64,000 bases of DNA from Escherichia coli (GCF_024700885.2 NZ_CP117016.1); one strand, 5' to 3'. Positions 1,502 through 48,124 are shown, numbered from the stretch's first letter. Translations and numbers: made by a program. Notes: generated by a model not told the origin, from the sequence alone.

Positions 1502-1597
1502 ATGCTGGGTAATATGAATGTTTTTATGGCCGTACTGGGAATAATTTTATTTTCTGGTTTTCTGGCCGCGTATTTCAGCCACAAATGGGATGACTAA
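1502..1597 (+). CDS. mgtS: small membrane protein MgtS (31 aa)
   Basis: Hand-translated short ORF MLGNMNVFMAVLGIILFSGFLAAYFSHKWDD, below the ORF-track length cutoff; hairpin plus T-run follows at ~1625-1664. Confidence 0.85.
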   Translation: MLGNMNVFMAVLGIILFSGFLAAYFSHKWDD

Positions 1598-1672
1598 TGA
1601 ACGGAGATAATCCCTCACCTAACCGGCCCCTTGTTACAGTTGTGTACAAGGGGCCTGATTTTTATGACGGCG

Positions 1673-1772
1673 AAAAAAAACCGCCAGTAAACCGGCGGTG
1701 AATGCTTGCATGGATAGATTTGTGTTTTGCTTTTACGCTAACAGGCATTTTCCTGCACTGATAACGGATCGT
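1673..1772 (-). ncRNA. mgrR: sRNA MgrR (PhoP-dependent), boundaries approximate
   Basis: Minus-strand intrinsic terminator (hairpin ccgccggtttactggcgg + T8) at 1673-1698; PhoP-box-like direct repeat GTTTAA-N5-GTTTAA on minus strand at 1804-1821; expected position between mgtS and dgcZ. Confidence 0.6.
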
Positions 1773-1803
1773 TGACACAGTAGCATCAGTTTTCTCAATG
1801 AAT

Positions 1804-1821
1804 GTTAAACGGAGCTTAAAC
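1804..1821 (-). promoter_or_regulatory. PhoP-box-like direct repeat upstream of mgrR
   Basis: Minus-strand sequence gtttaa gctcc gtttaa read directly. Confidence 0.5.
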
Positions 1822-7835: not shown

Positions 7836-9296
7836 TTACTTCACGGAATATTTCGCCACGGTCGCTTTCGCACCATGCGCTAATAAAGACAAGTACGCTT
7901 CCGTCACTTTTGCAGTAAACAAGCTATTGTCTGGCAAATCATCACCAAAGATTGCCTTAATCGCCAGCAATGACTGGACGCGCGCTTTCCCTTCGGCACT
8001 ACTTTGTACAGCCTTCTGAATAACAGGTAACAGTGGGTCACTGATTTCTATCGGATTTCCCTGTTCATCAACACCACCCACATAACGCATCCAACCTGCG
8101 ACGCCCAGCGCCAGCAGATCGAACTTGCTGTCATGCGCCAGATGCCAGCGAACAGAATCCAACATCCGCTGTGGCAATTTCTGGCTGCCATCCATCGCAA
8201 TCTGCCAGGTTCGATGACGTAACGCCGGGTTGCTATAGCGTGCAATTAATCGGTTAGCGTAATCTTGCAAATCAACGCCCTGCACTTTCAGCGTCGGCGC
8301 TTGTTCCTGCAACATCAAGCCATACGCCGCATGACGATAATGTTCATCTTCCATACAGTCATTAATGTGCTGATATCCAGCAAGATAACCCAGATACGCC
8401 AGGAATGAATGACTGCCGTTGAGCATGCGCAACTTCATCTCTTCATAAGGCAGCACATCGCTAACCAGTTCGGCTCCCGCTTTTTCCCATTCCGGACGTC
8501 CGGCAACAAAGTTATCTTCGATTACCCACTGGCGGAAAGGTTCACAGGCAACGCCAGCAGGATCGCGCACACCGGTAAGTTGTTCGATTTTCGCCAGCGT
8601 ATCCTCTGTCACTGCGGGCACAATACGGTCCACCATTGTTGATGGGAAAGTCACGTTATCTTCGATCCATTGTGCCAGTTTTACATCAACGGCTTGCGCG
8701 TAGGAAGTGACAACGTCACGCATAACATGACCGTTTTCTGGCATGTTGTCACATGACATGACGGTAAATGCGGGAAGTCCTGCCGCTTTACGGCGAGCCA
8801 GCGCCTCGACAATCACCCCTGTTGCAGTTTTCGGCTGGTGGGGATTTTGTACGTCGGCAACGACCATCGGGTGATCGAGCATTAACTGTCCGGTCGCCGG
8901 AGAGTGGAAATACCCTTTTTCGGTGATTGTCAGAGAGACAATCGCGATTTGCGGTTCACACATCGCAGCCAACACGGTTTCTAAGCCATCAATCTGTACG
9001 TGCAAGGCTTTTTTAACGACGCCAACGACGCGAGCCGTCCACGCATCGGCCGACATTTCCGCAACGGTATAAAGATTATCTTGCTGTTGTAAATCGGCAA
9101 TTTGCTGTTCGCCGCCGATTAAGTTGACCTCATAATATCCCCATTCACTGAAATGTTCCGTAGCAAGAATATCGGCATACACGCCCTGATGCGCACGGTG
9201 AAATGCACCAAAGCCTAAATGAACAATTCTTGGGGCCAGGTTATTACGATCATAAACAGGGAGTGTCGCTTTTGCTGATAACAAATTATTTCCCAT
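7836..9296 (-). CDS. ydfI: mannitol/mannonate dehydrogenase-family oxidoreductase
   Basis: 486-aa ORF; neighbourhood. Confidence 0.88.
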
Positions 9297-9384
9297 AACA
9301 ATTCCTTAAATATAAATATGGCAAGCTACATGTTTTGTTATATGAATAAAAATCCCCTCTCCGGTAAGAGAAGGGATTGAGGAT

Positions 9385-10752
9385 TTAAAGACTTCTGGAA
9401 GGTTGCGCAGCTCTGACAACACGCGGTTGATCTTCCGCAGCGTCTTCCAGCGCACTTAAATCACGGTCTTTCACTTCTGGCATTTTCAGCGCAGAGATTA
9501 AACCAATCACTGAATATGCCATGATCATAATGGCGATCGGATACCAGGATTCCGTCATGGTGCAGAAAATACCCGCCAGGATAGGACCAAAACCGGAAGC
9601 GATAAGACCACCAATTTCTTTAGAAATCGCCATCCGGGTAAAGCGGTTTTTACAGCCGAACATTTCTGCCATGGTAATGTTTTCCAGAGCAAATAATCCC
9701 AGCACCGCACAGTTATGAATCACAATCAGTGCAACCATAATGGTGCTCGGGGCATAGCTTTTATCTACGATGATAGAAAGCATTGGCCATGCCAGCACAA
9801 TCGCGGAGGTATTCATAATAATATACGGGATCCGGCGACCAATTTTATCGGATAACCAACCAAGGAACGGAATGGTCATAAAGCCGAGAATCGAACTGAT
9901 CATCAATGCATCTGTTGGAATTGCTTTGTTAAACAATAACGTCTGTACTAAATAGCCTGCAAGGAAAGTCTGAATTAAACCGGAGTTACCAGCCTGACCA
10001 AAACGCAGCCCTGTTGCCAGCCAGAAGGATTTGCTCTGGAACATGCTACCAGCAGGTGCAGGTTTTGCTGTCGGTTGGTTGCTGTCGTTAACCTTCTCAA
10101 AGACCGGGCTTTCTTTAAGATTCATACGCAACCAGATAGCAAAGACCATCACGACAACGCTCGCCAGAAACGGTATACGCCATCCCCACGCCAGCAGTTC
10201 TTCTTTACTGAGAATGAAGAACATAAAGGCCCAGATTGCCGTTGCGCTTAAGGTTCCGCAGTTAGTTCCCATAGCCACAAATGAGGAGATAATTCCGCGC
10301 TTACCTTTTGGTGCATATTCCGCCAGCATCGTGCCGGCACCGGAAATTTCCGCGCCTGCCCCCAGCCCCTGAATAATACGCAGCGTCACCAGCAAAATTG
10401 GCGCAAACACACCAATTTGTGCATAGGTCGGCAGCACACCAATTAAGGTGGTACAGATCCCCATCATAGTGATGGTAATAAAGAGCACTTTTTTACGCCC
10501 GATTCTGTCGCCCATTTTGCCGAAAATAAATGCTCCGACAATACGCGCCACATAACCTGCACCGTAGGTTCCCATTGCCAGAATTAACGCCATTGCCGTT
10601 GATGATTCAGGAAAAAATATTTCATGAAACACTAACGCTGCGCCGAGCGAATATAACTGGAAATCCATAAATTCAAGCGCAGTGCCCAGCCATCCCGATA
10701 CTGCTGCTTTCACCAAATCCTTAGTGCTTCTTTCGTGTTTTTCTATTGTCAT
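9385..10752 (-). CDS. ydfJ: MFS transporter YdfJ (intact)
   Basis: 455-aa multi-pass ORF directly adjacent to rspB with no intervening prophage. Confidence 0.85.
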   Translation of the reverse strand: MTIEKHERSTKDLVKAAVSGWLGTALEFMDFQLYSLGAALVFHEIFFPESSTAMALILAMGTYGAGYVARIVGAFIFGKMGDRIGRKKVLFITITMMGICTTLIGVLPTYAQIGVFAPILLVTLRIIQGLGAGAEISGAGTMLAEYAPKGKRGIISSFVAMGTNCGTLSATAIWAFMFFILSKEELLAWGWRIPFLASVVVMVFAIWLRMNLKESPVFEKVNDSNQPTAKPAPAGSMFQSKSFWLATGLRFGQAGNSGLIQTFLAGYLVQTLLFNKAIPTDALMISSILGFMTIPFLGWLSDKIGRRIPYIIMNTSAIVLAWPMLSIIVDKSYAPSTIMVALIVIHNCAVLGLFALENITMAEMFGCKNRFTRMAISKEIGGLIASGFGPILAGIFCTMTESWYPIAIMIMAYSVIGLISALKMPEVKDRDLSALEDAAEDQPRVVRAAQPSRSL

Positions 10753-40871: not shown

Positions 40872-42626
40872 TTATAAAAACGCGTCGCACTCGTCTGTTG
40901 TTATTGCGTTAGTCTGCGTTACTCCCTTAACTTTCCGCGTAATATATTCATGTCCGTAAACTTTCGCGGCTGGCTTCATAGCCTTGCCAAAGTCATTTAC
41001 GTTTAGCGGTTTGCTCCTGCCTGCGTACGCCATAAACGCCAGATAGACGCGGTAAAGGCTGTTTCTGGTCGTGTACTTCACTGAATCGCCACCGCCGCCC
41101 ATCATCAGGCCGCGTGCTTCCTCCAGAAAATTCAGGAACTGGCAAAACTCAATAACCGGATCCGTCTGTTGCTTTATTGCCAGAGCTTCATCACCGTCAC
41201 GCTGTTCCAGTAGTAAAGCCCGTGCCTTCTCAGGGTCGGTAAAGTTCGCCAGCAATCGGCGGATAATGACAGGGATTTCAGCCGCGATCTTTTCCGGTAG
41301 CTCCCTGTCTTTTTCGGCCTCACTGACGATATTGTCGAAACGGAAAATCACGCGACGACGTGCCACACCTCCGGCCCGTTCGGTGAATATCATCGGGTTA
41401 TTGTTGGTCGCCAGCACCACCGCCCTGATTACCGCCGTGAAACGCTTTTCGTATTTCGGGTTAATTTCCACGGGGTCACCGCCCGTGATTTTCTTGATGC
41501 CCGTTCCTTCGCCTGTATATTTCGGCTGGTCAGCCAGGACGATAAGACGACTCCCGACAACCTGCGCACGTCCACCAGCATCATCAAGCGATGTCATTTC
41601 AGCGCTTACCGTGTTCTGTTTCCCTGCCAGAAGGCTGGCTATGTGTGTGAATGTACTTTTACCGCTCCCGCCGTCTCCGGTGGCCTCAATAAACATCTGC
41701 CAGTCGTACCGGTTCGCCATAATCATGTACAGCGCGGCACATATACGCATCATCTTGCGCGGGTCTTTTCCGGCTGCGTGCTCAAGCCATTTATGAAAGT
41801 TTGGCGCGTTATCGCGGATGTTCTCCCCTGGTGCTGGTGGCGTGTACTCAATGCCGTTGTGCGTGGTGATCCAGTTCTCCGGCGTGTGCGGGGAAAATTC
41901 CCCCGTTTTCAGGTCAAGCGCACCATTGGCGAACGGCAACAAATCGCCGGACGGCTCGCCCATTGGTTCGGCAATAACTTTTAACGCTTCCACGGCGTTA
42001 TTGATTACGCGCTTGCTGAAAGTGGCCCTGTGCTCTGAATAGATCGCCACCATTTCGCGGCTAAGTTCCATTGTGCTGACCGGACACCATACCCCGCCGC
42101 GCCATACGTGAACGATTTCACTTTCAGGATGTACGCAAACGCCATCAAAGCGATCGGCAAGCAGTTGCGCGCGCTCACTGTCCGCCATCTGCGAAAGTTG
42201 CGCCTTTTGCTTTACCGGAAGCTCAATGACCAGACCATCAGAAAGATTCTGGCGCTCACGGGCCAGATATTCGCGCCAGTTCTCCACCTTCTGACCGTGC
42301 ATACCATCAGGGTAAAAATTTGCATCCTGTACGCCTGCCGCCGCCAGCTTCTGACCAATCGCCTTTATCATTACTGGCGCAAGATATCCGGCCCTGAATA
42401 TGCGCACGGATTTTCTGCCTTCCGGCACAATTTGCAGCTTATCCAGTTCGGATAACTGCTGCTCCCCAAGCCACACAGGAGGCTCATTATCTCCGGCCAT
42501 ACGCGCGTCATGTTCCTGCCATTGTTTTGCGTGTGACCAGGCATCACTACCCGCAAAAATAATGACTTCTGTTTCTTTGTGTTTTATGCCGCGTGACTGC
42601 TGTTTTACGTTCGGTGCCAGTTTCAT
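40872..42626 (-). CDS. replication protein: primase/helicase (P4-alpha / D5-like)
   Basis: 584-aa ORF with Walker A GDGGSGKST. Confidence 0.8.
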   Translation of the reverse strand: MKLAPNVKQQSRGIKHKETEVIIFAGSDAWSHAKQWQEHDARMAGDNEPPVWLGEQQLSELDKLQIVPEGRKSVRIFRAGYLAPVMIKAIGQKLAAAGVQDANFYPDGMHGQKVENWREYLARERQNLSDGLVIELPVKQKAQLSQMADSERAQLLADRFDGVCVHPESEIVHVWRGGVWCPVSTMELSREMVAIYSEHRATFSKRVINNAVEALKVIAEPMGEPSGDLLPFANGALDLKTGEFSPHTPENWITTHNGIEYTPPAPGENIRDNAPNFHKWLEHAAGKDPRKMMRICAALYMIMANRYDWQMFIEATGDGGSGKSTFTHIASLLAGKQNTVSAEMTSLDDAGGRAQVVGSRLIVLADQPKYTGEGTGIKKITGGDPVEINPKYEKRFTAVIRAVVLATNNNPMIFTERAGGVARRRVIFRFDNIVSEAEKDRELPEKIAAEIPVIIRRLLANFTDPEKARALLLEQRDGDEALAIKQQTDPVIEFCQFLNFLEEARGLMMGGGGDSVKYTTRNSLYRVYLAFMAYAGRSKPLNVNDFGKAMKPAAKVYGHEYITRKVKGVTQTNAITTDECDAFL

Positions 42627-43962: not shown

Positions 43963-44182
43963 GTACCCCTCCGCATTTTTTTTCGTTAGAAATAAGCGTT
44001 CTTCTTTCCTGTTCATCGCTCAGGAATACGCAGACCTCACCGCTAAGGCGTTTAAGTAAGCCGATGATTGCCCCTGATTCGCTGTCGGTCATCATGCCAG
44101 GGTAATCCTCTGCCAGTGCGCAAATAACTTCGATTTGGTGGGCGCGTTCTGCTGCCTGTTGTAGTGTGATTTCCTGGCTCAT
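43952..44182 (-). CDS. hypothetical protein
   Basis: 76-aa ORF. Confidence 0.5.
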   Translation of the reverse strand: MSQEITLQQAAERAHQIEVICALAEDYPGMMTDSESGAIIGLLKRLSGEVCVFLSDEQERRTLISNEKKCGGVHVQ

Positions 44183-44379
44183 AAGCCTACCCCCTGACGA
44201 ATACGGGCAGCAAATACCATCACGCAGCCAGCCGGAGATTGCTGGCGTGCTTCCTGTTCGCTGGTGGCCTCAATGGTAATCACGCGCGGTTGTGCCGTGC
44301 TCAGGGCGATAAAACGCCAGATGTATTTATTCAGGTTGTGCGAGTCCCGCCCTTGCGGGTGTGTGGTATGATTTCTCAT
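44179..44379 (-). CDS. hypothetical protein (possible first gene of early operon)
   Basis: 66 codons from the last Met of the long track ORF; GAGGT RBS 4 nt upstream; stop overlaps the next start. Confidence 0.35.
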   Translation of the reverse strand: MRNHTTHPQGRDSHNLNKYIWRFIALSTAQPRVITIEATSEQEARQQSPAGCVMVFAARIRQGVGL

Positions 44380-44475
44380 AGCTACCTCGATACTTTCGCT
44401 ATCGTTGGTGGTTAGAAGCCCGGTTAGTGTTAGCGCACTGCCGGGTTTCGTCGTTTCTGCACCTTGCGCCAACAA

Positions 44476-44549
44476 GGTGTTGAACACCAATTTAAACCCA
44501 GGTGTTAAACACGTCAAGTGTTGAACACTTATTTTTTTTCCTGCATACT
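44476..44549. promoter_or_regulatory. divergent control region with three 13-bp palindromic operators and a sigma70-like promoter
   Basis: ggtgttgaacacc (44476-44488), ggtgttaaacacg (44501-44513), agtgttgaacact (44517-44529); ttgaac -35 and catact -10 with 17-bp spacer. Confidence 0.6.
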
Positions 44550-44578
44550 GCATTTGTTTTTTATGAGGGGTACACCAC

Positions 44579-44758
44579 ATGGCGACAAAAGCGGTAAACG
44601 CAAAATCACAAACCGTTGCGGCAAGGGTTCCGCATGAAGTTATGAACAATGTTGAGGCGGTAAAAATGCCTGGCGAAAGTACGGGGCAATTTGTTACTGC
44701 GGCATTAAAACGAGAAGTTGAATATCGCCAGCGGCGCAAGGCCAAAGAACCAGAGTAA
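44579..44758 (+). CDS. small DNA-binding protein, probable ribbon-helix-helix regulator
   Basis: Hand-translated 59-aa ORF MATKAVNAKSQTVAARVPHEVMNNVEAVKMPGESTGQFVTAALKREVEYRQRRKAKEPE; gagggg RBS 8 nt upstream. Confidence 0.55.
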   Translation: MATKAVNAKSQTVAARVPHEVMNNVEAVKMPGESTGQFVTAALKREVEYRQRRKAKEPE

Positions 44759-45084
44759 TCACCATCAGCGCCGTGGTGTAAGGTATTACGGCGCATTGCT
44801 ATGCAGGACAACACAATGACCGATAAAGAATTGACCAAAACATTATCACCGGCACGGAAAAGACGGCGCAGAAAGATAGAGCATGAATCAGAAAGATTCG
44901 CGCCATGTGCTTTTGCCCTTGAGCAATTCCTTAAAGAGTACAGGGAAAAGCGCTCATTGCAGGTATGGCAACGAACTGAACCAGACTGATTGCATTGCCC
45001 ACCAGCCTGATAACGGCTATCATCCCCGTGCTTATGTTTGGGATCACACACACAAACGGCGCAGCGGGTTATCTGTTCAGAAAG

Positions 45085-45112
45085 GCGGCTCCATTTCGGG
45101 GCCGCTTTTTTT
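45085..45112 (+). terminator. intrinsic terminator
   Basis: Hairpin gcggctcc…ggggccgc followed by T7. Confidence 0.6.
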
Positions 45113-45258
45113 ATACCTGAAAAACCCCAATTTTGTTGTTTTTCAGTTTCACCAGGGCGAACGAATCCCCGCCCACGTTCTGGCGTATATTCAATCTTCA
45201 TGGTTATAGCTCTGTGTTCAGATGATTGATGTGTGGCGGCTGCGTGCCGCCAGCGTGA

Positions 45259-45528
45259 TTAATGAACTGCCTTGCAGCTATCCTTCCAGGCCAGAACCTC
45301 GGATAAAGACCAGCCAACGGAACGACCGCCAAGTTTACGACGTGATGGGAATTGTCCGGCCTTTTCCAGGCGGTAGCGACACGTACGGCTAAGGCCGGTT
45401 AGTTTTTCGCATTCTTTTTCACGTATAAACCGATCAGTGCTTAACACTATTGCCCCCCTTTCGTTTCTTAAAGAGTCATCAGGTGTCTTATTGTGTCGTA
45501 TTGTTCCCGCTAGAGTGATGAATGGCAA
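45259..45528 (-). CDS. alpA: AlpA-family transcriptional regulator / excisionase-like
   Basis: C-terminal …LTGLSRTCRYRLEKAGQFPSRRKLGGRSVGW… HTH typical of AlpA; true start probably internal. Confidence 0.7.
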   Translation of the reverse strand: MPFITLAGTIRHNKTPDDSLRNERGAIVLSTDRFIREKECEKLTGLSRTCRYRLEKAGQFPSRRKLGGRSVGWSLSEVLAWKDSCKAVH

Positions 45529-45812: not shown

Positions 45813-47042
45813 TTATTTTCTTCTGGCTACGGGTAGCGTGGTTACGTTTTCATGTGTTCCCGCCAGTATCCCTAACCGCTCCGTCCACATATCCAGCGCA
45901 TTGCGTTTCGCATCCAGATAACGGGAATGATTATAAACTCGCTGCATTCCTGGCATCTGGTGGCCTGTAAGCTGCTCCACGACATGCGGATCAACGCCTA
46001 AATCGTTCAGCATGGTTGTAAAGGTGCGCCGGATGTCATGCAGTGACCAGTGAGGGTGATTAAGCCTCCTGTACGCTAATCTTCCATACTGCGATACGCT
46101 GGCCTCCTGTTTCACTTCCCCCAGCAATAAGCCCGTGTGCCTGTTCTGCTCCACCAGCTGCGTGACGAACGGCAGGATCGCTTCCGGTATGGGCCGGAAT
46201 ATTGCGACCTTCGTTTTGCTGTGCTCCTTCGGAACGGTCCATAGCATTTCCGTAAAATCCCACTCCCCGATCTCCGATAACCTCAGTTCTACCGTTCTGG
46301 CTCCGAAGACAATCAGGAGGCGGATTAACGCGACGTAGTAAGGGGAGAATATTTTTTTGTCCAGTGCCTGCAATAATTCGCCAAGTTCTTTGTTACTTAA
46401 GACACGTTCGCTTATATCCGGTTTTTTCCCAACGTCCGCAACGTTCAGATCGTCCAGAACGTTGCTGATTGCATAGCGCCGCCTACGGCAGAACTTAAGC
46501 GCCTGTTTGCACGCCTGTAGCACGAATCCGGCAGTAACAGGCGTTCGCTTTGCCACCTGGTCAAAACAGGCCAGCCAGTGCCGTAGCTCGCATTTATCCA
46601 GCGGCATAGCACCAATCTGCTGTATTACGTGATTATTAAGTCGCCTTTTCAGGGCGATATAATCCACGCGGTTTTCCTTTACGTAATACTCAAGCCAGTA
46701 GGTGAGCGCATCGCCAACCGTTACGGGCTTTAACGCTTCCTGTACGGTGTAATTCATCTCATGACGTGGATTTTTCCCCTCAGCCAGCCATGTGCGACAC
46801 TGTGCGGCTTTTTCCCTGGCTGCTTTCAGGCTCAGATCAGGATAACTTCCCAGCTTAATGCGTTCGGGTCGTGTCTCCCTTCCCGTTCCGGCCCTGTATG
46901 TGAAATACCAGGTCAATTTCCCTGATGTTAAATATTTCACGCTCAGGTTTCCGCCATCACTATAAAACGTGTTTTTCTCCGCTGGCTTACCATGAAGTTT
47001 CCTTAGCAAGGTATCGCTCAGTTTGTTCATTGCTCTGCTCAC
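45813..47042 (-). CDS. int: tyrosine recombinase / integrase
   Basis: 409 aa with C-terminal catalytic region (HDIRRT…RVYNHSRY); adjacent to attR. Confidence 0.9.
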   Translation of the reverse strand: MSRAMNKLSDTLLRKLHGKPAEKNTFYSDGGNLSVKYLTSGKLTWYFTYRAGTGRETRPERIKLGSYPDLSLKAAREKAAQCRTWLAEGKNPRHEMNYTVQEALKPVTVGDALTYWLEYYVKENRVDYIALKRRLNNHVIQQIGAMPLDKCELRHWLACFDQVAKRTPVTAGFVLQACKQALKFCRRRRYAISNVLDDLNVADVGKKPDISERVLSNKELGELLQALDKKIFSPYYVALIRLLIVFGARTVELRLSEIGEWDFTEMLWTVPKEHSKTKVAIFRPIPEAILPFVTQLVEQNRHTGLLLGEVKQEASVSQYGRLAYRRLNHPHWSLHDIRRTFTTMLNDLGVDPHVVEQLTGHQMPGMQRVYNHSRYLDAKRNALDMWTERLGILAGTHENVTTLPVARRK

Positions 47043-47226: not shown

Positions 47227-48124
47227 TCTTAACCCGCTGGTGCAACACATGGTCCGCTGGCGTGTGCCGCGTGTACTGGCAGTGTCGATTTTGATGACCA
47301 TCATCGTGATGGCGATGGTGTTGCTGTTAGCTTATCTGGGTTCCGCACTCAACGAGTTGACGCGGACGTTACCGCAATATCGCAACTCTATTATGACGCC
47401 GCTGCAAGCTCTTGAACCGTTGTTGCAACGCGTAGGGATTGACGTCTCAGTTGACCAACTGGCGCATTACATTGATCCGAACGCGGCGATGACGTTGCTC
47501 ACCAACTTATTGACGCAGTTATCTAATGCCATGTCATCAATCTTTTTATTGCTGCTGACGGTGCTGTTTATGCTGCTCGAAGTGCCACAATTGCCCGGAA
47601 AATTTCAGCAAATGATGGCGCGTCCGGTTGAAGGGATGGCGGCGATTCAGCGTGCGATTGACAGTGTGTCTCATTATCTGGTGCTGAAAACAGCCATCAG
47701 CATCATCACCGGCCTGGTCGCCTGGGCGATGCTCGCCGCACTCGATGTTCGCTTCGCTTTTGTCTGGGGATTGCTGGCCTTTGCGCTTAATTACATCCCG
47801 AATATTGGTTCAGTTCTCGCGGCAATCCCCCCTATTGCTCAGGTACTGGTGTTTAATGGCTTCTACGAAGCGTTGCTGGTGCTGGCGGGATATCTGCTGA
47901 TTAATCTGGTCTTCGGCAATATTCTGGAGCCACGCATCATGGGGCGTGGGCTGGGGCTTTCCACATTGGTGGTATTTTTGTCGTTGATTTTTTGGGGATG
48001 GTTGTTAGGACCGGTGGGTATGCTGCTTTCCGTGCCGTTGACAATTATTGTCAAAATTGCGCTTGAACAAACAGCGGGAGGTCAAAGCATCGCCGTTCTG
48101 TTAAGCGATCTCAATAAAGAGTGA
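47218..48124 (+). pseudogene. tqsA: tqsA 3' portion, separated from its start and promoter
   Basis: In-frame continuation …[16 protein letters not shown]…; track ORF 47240-48124 (GTG start) covers the C-terminal 294 aa. Confidence 0.85.

Follow-up and report, generated by a model that had tools for sequence, protein, structure and literature searches.

A candidate two-gene cassette antisense to an eta-like reading frame in the regulatory zone of a P4-related Escherichia coli satellite island

Relation of the locus to P4 eta/kil

The nested eta and kil genes of satellite phage P4, whose primary source is reportedly Forti et al. 1999 in J. Bacteriol., provide the closest parallel to a segment of Escherichia coli DNA located at positions 44759–45112 of a stretch of 64,000 nucleotides (GCF_024700885.2 NZ_CP117016.1), hereafter called the window. 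The P4 eta gene contains an internal constitutive promoter; the full-length Eta protein arises from the late promoter upstream alone, its translation is coupled to the alpA homologue, and this translation prevents termination (PMC10111431). In Gram-negative phage-inducible chromosomal islands (PICIs), the gene order is an integration zone, a "Bro" zone, a replication zone, and a late zone (PMC10111431), and AlpA acts as an activator (PMC6092414, PMC11773190). The segment studied here falls into the second ("Bro") zone of such an island. According to the preferred reading, for which the probability was estimated at roughly 0.55, it is a doubly used segment of the PICI regulatory zone, being both the distal half of a small plus-strand operon and the interior of a minus-strand, eta-like open reading frame (ORF).

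The P4 record contains a 199-codon ORF (8168–8767, minus strand), the ATG of which overlaps the stop codon of vis (ORF88); the isrK/seqA-like and C4 (CI RNA) elements fall inside this ORF, whose 3′-terminal part encodes the 65-aa Kil. The layout in the window is alike: after a vis/alpA homologue comes a long ORF that crosses regulatory elements and an internal promoter (predicted at 44517–44489), and its last ~65 codons form a Kil/Icd-like gene that can be translated separately. The start of the long ORF lies beside alpA and upstream of the internal promoter-like site. P4 Kil and the Icd-like protein of the window both belong to phrog_1743, and vis and alpA both belong to phrog_2790. The frame in the window differs from that of P4 in its length (340 versus 199 codons), in the 55-nt gap after alpA, where P4 has an ATGA overlap, and in crossing two antisense genes that form a cassette with promoters and a terminator of their own, for which P4 has no counterpart.

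Constraint on the overlapping frames and signals

The plus-strand ORF at 44816–44989 encodes a 57-aa protein and is the distal gene of a small operon. It matched phrog_21027 (E = 1.6 × 10−15), a family carrying no assigned function, with the alignment running from the first residue of the protein over profile positions 1–46 of 65. A previous reading made without database searches (the sequence-only reading) had correctly delimited the gap, with the stop codon of the upstream gene at 44756–44758, and had correctly recognized a strong terminator at 45085–45112. Its statements that the region held no convincing gene and that the 57-aa ORF lacked a Shine–Dalgarno sequence did not hold: the ORF belongs to the family named above, AGGA is present at 44805–44808 with a 7-nt spacer to the ATG at 44816, and a minus-strand ORF of 340 codons spanning the region had been missed.

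In total, 136 related loci were fetched, in which the 57-aa gene is represented by 46 unique DNA versions; it should be noted that modules are common to many of these loci and that counts across them are not independent events. Across 21 distinct upstream variants, neither the AGG core of the Shine–Dalgarno sequence (8–11 nt upstream) nor the ATG changes, while the intervening spacer varies freely. An upstream ATG at 44801, which would give a 62-aa version, is absent in some relatives and is therefore not a conserved start. The 57-aa ORF is intact in 135 of the 136 loci, with a stop seven codons early in the remaining one, and only a single stop-creating change was seen in its frame against ~9.7 expected if the sequence were neutral (46 DNA versions, at least 170 substitutions). 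The protein has a basic N-terminus (ARKRRRRK) followed by a helix with the conserved core ERFAPCAFALEQFLKEY. Its 36 homologues, 64–98% identical and all from E. coli or Shigella, differ by indels that are in frame and have the core ERFAPCAFALE(K/Q)FLKEY in common. In the AlphaFold2 model, a low-confidence basic N-terminus, which is probably disordered, precedes one long helix at residues 24–54 (pLDDT 72).

No match to the 57-aa protein was found in Pfam, NCBIfam, PADLOC, or PDB, and no family members were found in 50,697 GenBank phage records or in one genome per species for 100,044 species. A search of viral contigs with homologue P0027 returned no relative, and distant homologues formed just nine clusters among 1.8 billion representatives, one of them spurious. 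Judged by these searches, the family is narrow and is that of E. coli and Shigella islands. The product is read here as a real, fast-evolving small protein, for which the favoured role would be that of a small nucleic-acid- or partner-binding regulator co-expressed with the repressor.

On the minus strand, the list of ORFs contains the eta-like ORF of 340 codons (45201–44179), which covers the entire region 44759–45112. It starts at ATG 45201, preceded by CAGAG and located 55 nt past the alpA stop, and passes antisense through the terminator, the 57-aa gene, the upstream gene with a putative ribbon–helix–helix (RHH)-like product, and the operator/promoter region. Its 3′-terminal part is, in the same frame, the Icd/Kil-like gene of 66 aa (44179–44379, minus; NF033153, E = 2 × 10−18; phrog_1743; WP_015674632.1 according to the Prokaryotic Genome Annotation Pipeline, PGAP), which has its own GAGG ribosome-binding site. 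Over the interval 44380–45258, from the kil ATG to the alpA stop, the eta-like frame contains no stop codons, versus 7–21 in each of the other five frames. The probability of finding no stop, estimated by dinucleotide shuffles, was 0.024 for the operator/promoter segment and 0.037 for 44987–45200; for the RHH-like gene, synonymous resampling gave 0.25–0.31. The minus frame is uninterrupted from the shadow of the 57-aa gene into the Kil/Icd-like gene in 105 of the 136 loci; 19 of the 29 clusters of intervening sequences were purely continuous, and a separate count of ORF overlaps scored two loci as a gap. Inside the 57-aa gene, stop-creating changes in the minus frame were not seen at all, versus ~5.4 expected. 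Thus, selection against stop codons is seen in both frames, and the eta reading was adopted because the search for antisense-frame stops in the relatives found none.

The start of the eta-like frame is conserved across 45 loci, as are the first ~16 residues of its product (M..Y.PE.GRGFVRP), some of the changes being silent, and in another architecture the frame begins with M(A/T/V)H(K/N)TKATGGGRQW, at the complement of the plus-strand terminator. Residues 1–250 gave no family match in Pfam, NCBIfam, or PHROG, and the peptide is otherwise not conserved where the DNA varies (HGDDSRYQ, HIQNTRLL, PKHHSDLL). The minus frame therefore appears to be constrained mainly to remain open, its peptide not being conserved for most of its length.

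The Sakai annotation of the eta-like frame is a hypothetical protein of 247 aa, ECs_1576 (NC_002695.2 1596731–1597474; 7731–8474 in locus L139), and the label given by PGAP to the long ORF is "Icd-like pseudogene". ECs_1576 stops 26 nt before the Kil-like ECs_1577, yet overlaps the upstream extension of the ECs_1577 frame by 74 nt; an identical 57-aa ORF and an Arc-like gene lie on the opposite strand of this locus, both unannotated. In the window, alpA and the eta-like ORF are in one reading frame, separated by the alpA TAA (45259–45261) and 19 sense codons, and this gap holds a GC hairpin (45232–45248) with no U-run. In other architectures, the eta-like frame overlaps the 3′ end of alpA or starts within ~20 nt of it.

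A stem-loop of 11 bp with no U-run (44768–44794, plus) is located between the two plus-strand cistrons. Its pairing was retained in 92% of the cells in 21 variants, versus at most 59% when the partner was slid. At 8 of the 11 stem pairs, one-sided changes were found that keep G·U pairs on the plus-strand RNA and give A·C mismatches on the minus-strand RNA. The shuffle control for conservation of the stem-loop was not significant (21 variants), so that the pattern of changes is suggestive only.

Directly after the stop codon of the 57-aa gene, the consensus scan revealed a promoter-like site, TTGCCC–17 nt–TATCAT (44995–45000 and 45018–45023, plus). In 14 distinct classes of spacer plus hexamer, the sequence TTGCCCACCAG hardly varies and the spacer length stays fixed at 17 nt, although spacer positions 13–23, the distal 10 of the spacer, are hypervariable. 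Positions A2, T3, and T6 of the −10 hexamer are invariant in 14 of 14 classes, while positions 4–5 and the following bases vary. Fixed hexamers and spacing amid variable bases are the pattern expected of a working −35/−10 pair, and the site is probably a conserved promoter of the sigma-70 type, as predicted from the hexamers and the 17-nt spacing.

The plus-strand terminator, located before alpA and int, consists of an 8-bp GC-rich stem (45085–45092/45098–45105), the loop ATTTC, and a T-run at 45106–45112 (U7 in the RNA), with a hairpin energy of ~−15 kcal/mol. It was not listed by a simple consensus scan, and the evidence for it is folding together with conservation of the class, which is present in 132 of the 136 loci at 58–89 nt after the promoter-like site. 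The terminators of the relatives comprise four hairpin types in 20 unique versions, in all of which the T-run is on the plus strand and never on the minus strand; their folds contained 10 G·U pairs on the plus strand versus 2 on the minus strand. No strand bias in stability was found, the mean being −13.3 kcal/mol on either strand; only the T-run and the G·U pairs are strand-specific.

The promoter-like site and the terminator would delimit a candidate short RNA of ~83 nt (45030–45112, plus; 50–85 nt in the relatives), antisense to codons ~30–58 of the eta-like ORF; the stretch 45030–45117 folds with −30.4 kcal/mol (z = −4.0). A search of Rfam with the whole window at gathering thresholds and with the region at E up to 10 revealed no credible family in 44759–45112. 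Esr41 (RF02676), considered as a candidate, gave no match here and is encoded on SpLE1, a different island. Lists of small RNAs (sRNAs) of enterohaemorrhagic E. coli and locus tags contained no entry at the Sakai Sp7 coordinates or at ECs1575–1577, which is a weak negative since coordinate versions may differ, and the supplement of Tree 2014 had no entry near the Sakai locus. An sRNA-like unit of 50–85 nt, transcribed from its own promoter after the ORF, is plausible from these signals.

The upstream gene (44579–44758, plus) encodes 59 aa of the YlcI/YnfO family (NCBIfam NF041551, E = 2 × 10−16; phrog_949) and is probably the repressor-like first cistron of the plus-strand operon. The AlphaFold2 monomer has an extended N-terminus and two helices (pLDDT 84), so that a beta-alpha-alpha, RHH-like topology is plausible on the model; a fold search with this model (Foldseek) gave no significant match. 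At least four types of upstream gene were found across the relatives, namely, the 59-aa YlcI/YnfO type, a 101-aa extended type, and two Arc-like types, and one alternative type matched Pfam Arc weakly (E = 0.038). The stop codon of every type is located exactly 57 nt before the ATG of the 57-aa gene. Mosaic breakpoints cluster on the left at 44671–44761 and occur on the right at 45007, 45039, and 45111; since they lie on either side of it, 44761–45007 is regarded as a conserved module joined to variable partners. The conserved module begins within the C-terminal tail of the upstream proteins (breakpoints 44719–44729).

A script search revealed three palindromic operator-like sites, GGTGTTGAACACC, GTGTTAAACAC, and AGTGTTGAACACT (11–13 bp, GTGTT-N-AACAC type), at 44476–44529. 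They overlap a minus-strand promoter-like site (TTGACG 44517–44512, TAAATT 44494–44489) and also a weaker plus-strand one (TTGAAC 44521–44526, CATACT 44544–44549). Other types of upstream gene are accompanied by other palindromes, TGGTAATTACCA (twice) in one type and AGGTGGCCACCT in another. This change of palindromes with the gene type fits a specificity-determining repressor and suggests that repressor/operator specificities may be swapped between islands.

A weak SymR-like match to Rfam was recorded at window positions 44380–44452 (plus; 33 bits, E = 3 × 10−4, below the gathering score of 61). It begins exactly where an extended −10 element (TGnTATGAT; TGGTATGAT, 44364–44372) inside the kil/Icd-like gene would start transcription, and includes a second hairpin (44418–44449) followed by a U-rich run. 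The putative RNA would overlap, in antisense, both the ribosome-binding site of kil and its 5′ leader; the stretch could instead be a leader structure of the minus-strand transcript.

Proposed function and alternative readings

Under the reading as a doubly used segment, the operator-rich switch would drive the plus-strand operon in the quiescent state up to 45112, in the order of the swappable repressor-like gene, the stem-loop, the Shine–Dalgarno sequence with the 57-aa protein, the promoter for the 50–85-nt RNA, and the terminator. The terminator, acting on the plus strand only, would halt transcription before alpA and int. The short RNA would perhaps also be made in the quiescent state, and the convergent plus-strand RNAs, fully complementary to the late transcript, may then oppose it. 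Upon helper-dependent activation of alpA, ribosomes would load at 45201 on AlpA-dependent late transcripts, and, by analogy with P4 eta/kil, translation of the eta-like frame, continuing through the cassette and the switch into kil, would shield the RNA from termination by Rho. Late transcription would then reach the replication genes regardless of the internal promoter. A role of long-ORF translation in preventing Rho-dependent termination is inferred from this analogy and is consistent with a frame that is stop-free in 105 of the 136 loci and relayed in 29, with none of the ~5.4 expected stops.

A further-reaching and tentative proposal, considered rather unlikely, is that the overlapped segment is itself the switch. 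The quiescent plus-strand operon would block the eta-like "ribosome track" by antisense pairing, and Rho would terminate late transcription, while the prevailing of AlpA-driven transcription and eta-like translation would silence the cassette. If true, this would supply the "missing repressor" module of Gram-negative PICIs, and both strands of the same DNA would be under selection for translation, one of them regardless of the peptide.

There is a small chance that the 340-codon minus ORF is an ordinary protein gene of the Bro-network/Eta-like kind, dependent on its sequence, and that the 57-aa ORF is its untranslated shadow. Both annotations of the frame cited above, as ECs_1576 and as an "Icd-like pseudogene", would accord with such a gene, as would a Bro-N-looking start in some relatives (judged by eye), the conserved N-terminal peptide MKIEYTPERGRGFVRP, and the larger share of silent third-position changes in the minus frame. 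However, residues 1–250 have no family and the peptide is not conserved where the DNA varies, whereas signals specific to the plus strand are conserved (AGG with ATG, the hairpin with its G·U pairs, the T-runs, and the promoter), and the plus frame has acquired one stop instead of the expected 9.7. After normalisation, the ratio of non-synonymous to synonymous polymorphism (pN/pS) was 0.43 in the plus frame and 0.50 in the minus frame for the whole ORF, 0.50 and 0.52 for the N-terminal part, and 0.35 and 0.53 for the helical core. Two common four-fold transversions in the core leave the plus-frame residues (Pro, Ala) unchanged but are His/Gln and Asn/Lys changes in the minus frame, which also speaks for the plus frame.

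It is similarly improbable that the plus strand is non-coding, in the form of a long 3′ untranslated region (UTR) or an sRNA antisense to the late transcript, with the 57-aa ORF untranslated or its product irrelevant. Conservation of the plus-strand hairpin, internal promoter, and terminator would be accounted for in this way, and the protein family is narrow and fast-evolving, with pN/pS of ~0.4–0.5. What such a reading leaves unexplained is the conservation of the Shine–Dalgarno core and ATG, an ORF intact in 135 of 136 loci with indels in frame, and a conserved helical core in which the silent changes are specific to the plus frame. The sequence-only reading had also suggested a long 3′ UTR or sRNA; an sRNA-like unit is plausible, with its own conserved promoter, while the 350-nt 3′ UTR was not borne out.

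The same reading had proposed a weakly translated partner of the RHH gene in a toxin/antitoxin-like pair. A conserved, co-oriented partner does exist, but weak translation is not obvious for a gene with a ribosome-binding site. That the two genes form a type II toxin–antitoxin pair stabilising the island is very improbable: two small co-oriented genes with the DNA-binding one first, and a module starting in the upstream C-terminal tail (44719–44729), which could be partner-binding, would be in keeping with it, but the 57-aa protein has no counterpart among toxin, defence, or PDB families, its model is one amphipathic helix with a basic tail, and three operators over divergent promoters suggest a switch repressor. 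Moreover, cognate co-inheritance was not found; the single 57-aa gene follows at least four different upstream genes, unlike in cognate pairs, and the toxin–antitoxin reading is therefore not supported. Just as improbable is an arginine-rich, lambda N-like regulator binding the stem-loop at 44768–44794 and altering termination or translation of the plus transcript, since, despite ARKRRRRK in an N-terminus disordered in the model, a conserved hairpin placed directly upstream and after a repressor-like gene as nutR is after cro, and a terminator downstream, the protein is unrelated in sequence to N proteins, the divergent homologue P0040 lacks the N-terminal basic stretch and is basic at its C-terminus, and transcripts passing the terminator would merely run antisense into alpA and int.

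A number of observations weigh against the reading as a doubly used segment. The third codon positions of the plus and minus frames coincide, and the third-position test is consequently uninformative; taken at face value, the share of silent third-position changes is higher in the minus frame (45 of 54) than in the plus frame (36 of 50), because the Lys-, Glu-, and Arg-rich codons of the plus frame face four-fold-degenerate codons of the minus frame. The clear difference in pN/pS is confined to the core. Given its amino acid sequence, the 57-aa gene is stop-free in antisense by composition alone (P = 0.83–0.90 by synonymous resampling). The minus frame is interrupted in 29 of the 136 loci, where a second ORF overlaps its end, and two more loci are exceptions, the kil gene not being located in one and the frame being broken by a stop in the other. 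Since the loci were retrieved with the plus-strand peptide, broken copies may be under-sampled, and rare frameshifted copies exist among database proteins (P0036 and P0041, which are fusions of the 57-aa ORF with the +1 frame, a 108-aa ORF at 44883–45209). With respect to P4, no C4 (CI RNA) or isrK match was obtained in the window even at permissive thresholds, no Phage_ASH domain (Pfam) was found in the window ORF, whereas P4 Eta and the long ORF of the relative L137 have one, and a direct BLASTP comparison of the long ORF with P4 Eta reached just E = 0.69; tblastn with the Icd-like protein did not find P4. The P4 analogy consequently rests on the layout and the Kil and vis families (PHROG profiles), as the window has neither CI RNA nor Phage_ASH. 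Finally, no published transcript, ribosome-profiling, or genetic data turned up for this locus.

The satellite island and comparison with known systems

The region belongs to a P4-related, capsid-encoding satellite island of the Sakai prophage Sp7 type (window 40.8–47 kb). For the identical sequence in E. coli FORC_069, PGAP lists int, alpA, the YlcI/YnfO-family protein (44579–44758, plus), Icd-like proteins, primase, SSB, a PerC-family regulator, a phage capsid gene, and several small hypothetical genes; the tyrosine integrase is located at 45813–47042 and the primase at 40872–42626, both on the minus strand. The alpA gene (45259–45447, minus; Pfam Phage_AlpA, E = 5 × 10−17) is the homologue of P4 ORF88/vis, in common with which it has phrog_2790. 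The order int–alpA–primase, in one orientation and with captured capsid/packaging genes, was found both in the FORC_069 locus and in Sakai Sp7. Judged by its genes, the island is a Gram-negative PICI of the Sakai Sp7 type; its counterpart in O157:H7 Sakai is listed as "prophage Sp7, untypable". Matches were found in ~1,200–1,300 of 5,426 complete E. coli genomes, the O157:H7 Sp7 island included. The insertion point of the island is the 5′ end of tqsA, encoding the AI-2 (autoinducer-2) transporter (window 47240–48124, plus; 8631–9725 in locus L001); tqsA is called incomplete by PGAP, with the N-terminus missing, and a short hypothetical ORF bridges the junction. The sole Rfam match in the whole window at the gathering threshold is a full-length STnc560 Hfq-binding RNA (RF01407, 281.9 bits) at 1591–1804 (minus).

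Some cassette-bearing relatives contain C4 (72–79 bits) and isrK/seqA-like elements inside the long ORF, on the minus strand (L137 1703–1891; L021 1825–2010; L033 1342–2005; L007 1518–1722). Judging from their distribution, RNA and protein immunity layers seem to be combined or lost in different islands.

Lambda OOP RNA and P22 sar RNA are short antisense RNAs that have their own promoters and are located inside immunity regions. The candidate RNA resembles them in that a predicted promoter after a small regulatory gene would give an RNA of 50–85 nt, complementary to a convergent transcript and terminated intrinsically. It differs from them in having no sequence or Rfam relationship to either, in being predicted from signals, and in its target, which would be the 5′ part of the eta-like frame (the start region in some relatives).

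As in the Bro zone of Mageeney et al. 2023 (PMC10111431), the region is flanked by the integration zone (int, alpA) on one side and the replication zone on the other, is mosaic with swapping of domains and modules, and has P4-like immunity RNAs in some members. The available parts of the Bro zone and PICI descriptions (PMC10111431, PMC6092414) treat the zone as essentially unidirectional, and within those parts a divergent repressor-like gene, a 57-aa gene, and an opposite-strand promoter/terminator unit are not described. The PICI repressor is an open question (Fillol-Salom et al. 2018, PMC6092414), and the locus would be a concrete and widespread candidate for silencing. It is also an annotation trap, as gene callers report either the small genes or the long antisense frame (ECs_1576, "Icd-like pseudogene"), rarely both, and selection for an open frame whose peptide is not conserved could be tested cleanly here. 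Thus, the eta/kil principle and the Bro zone of PICIs were known already, whereas, relative to the available parts of these descriptions, what appears to be new is a two-gene cassette, equipped with a predicted promoter and terminator, that lies antisense inside an eta-like frame, with selection visible on both strands.

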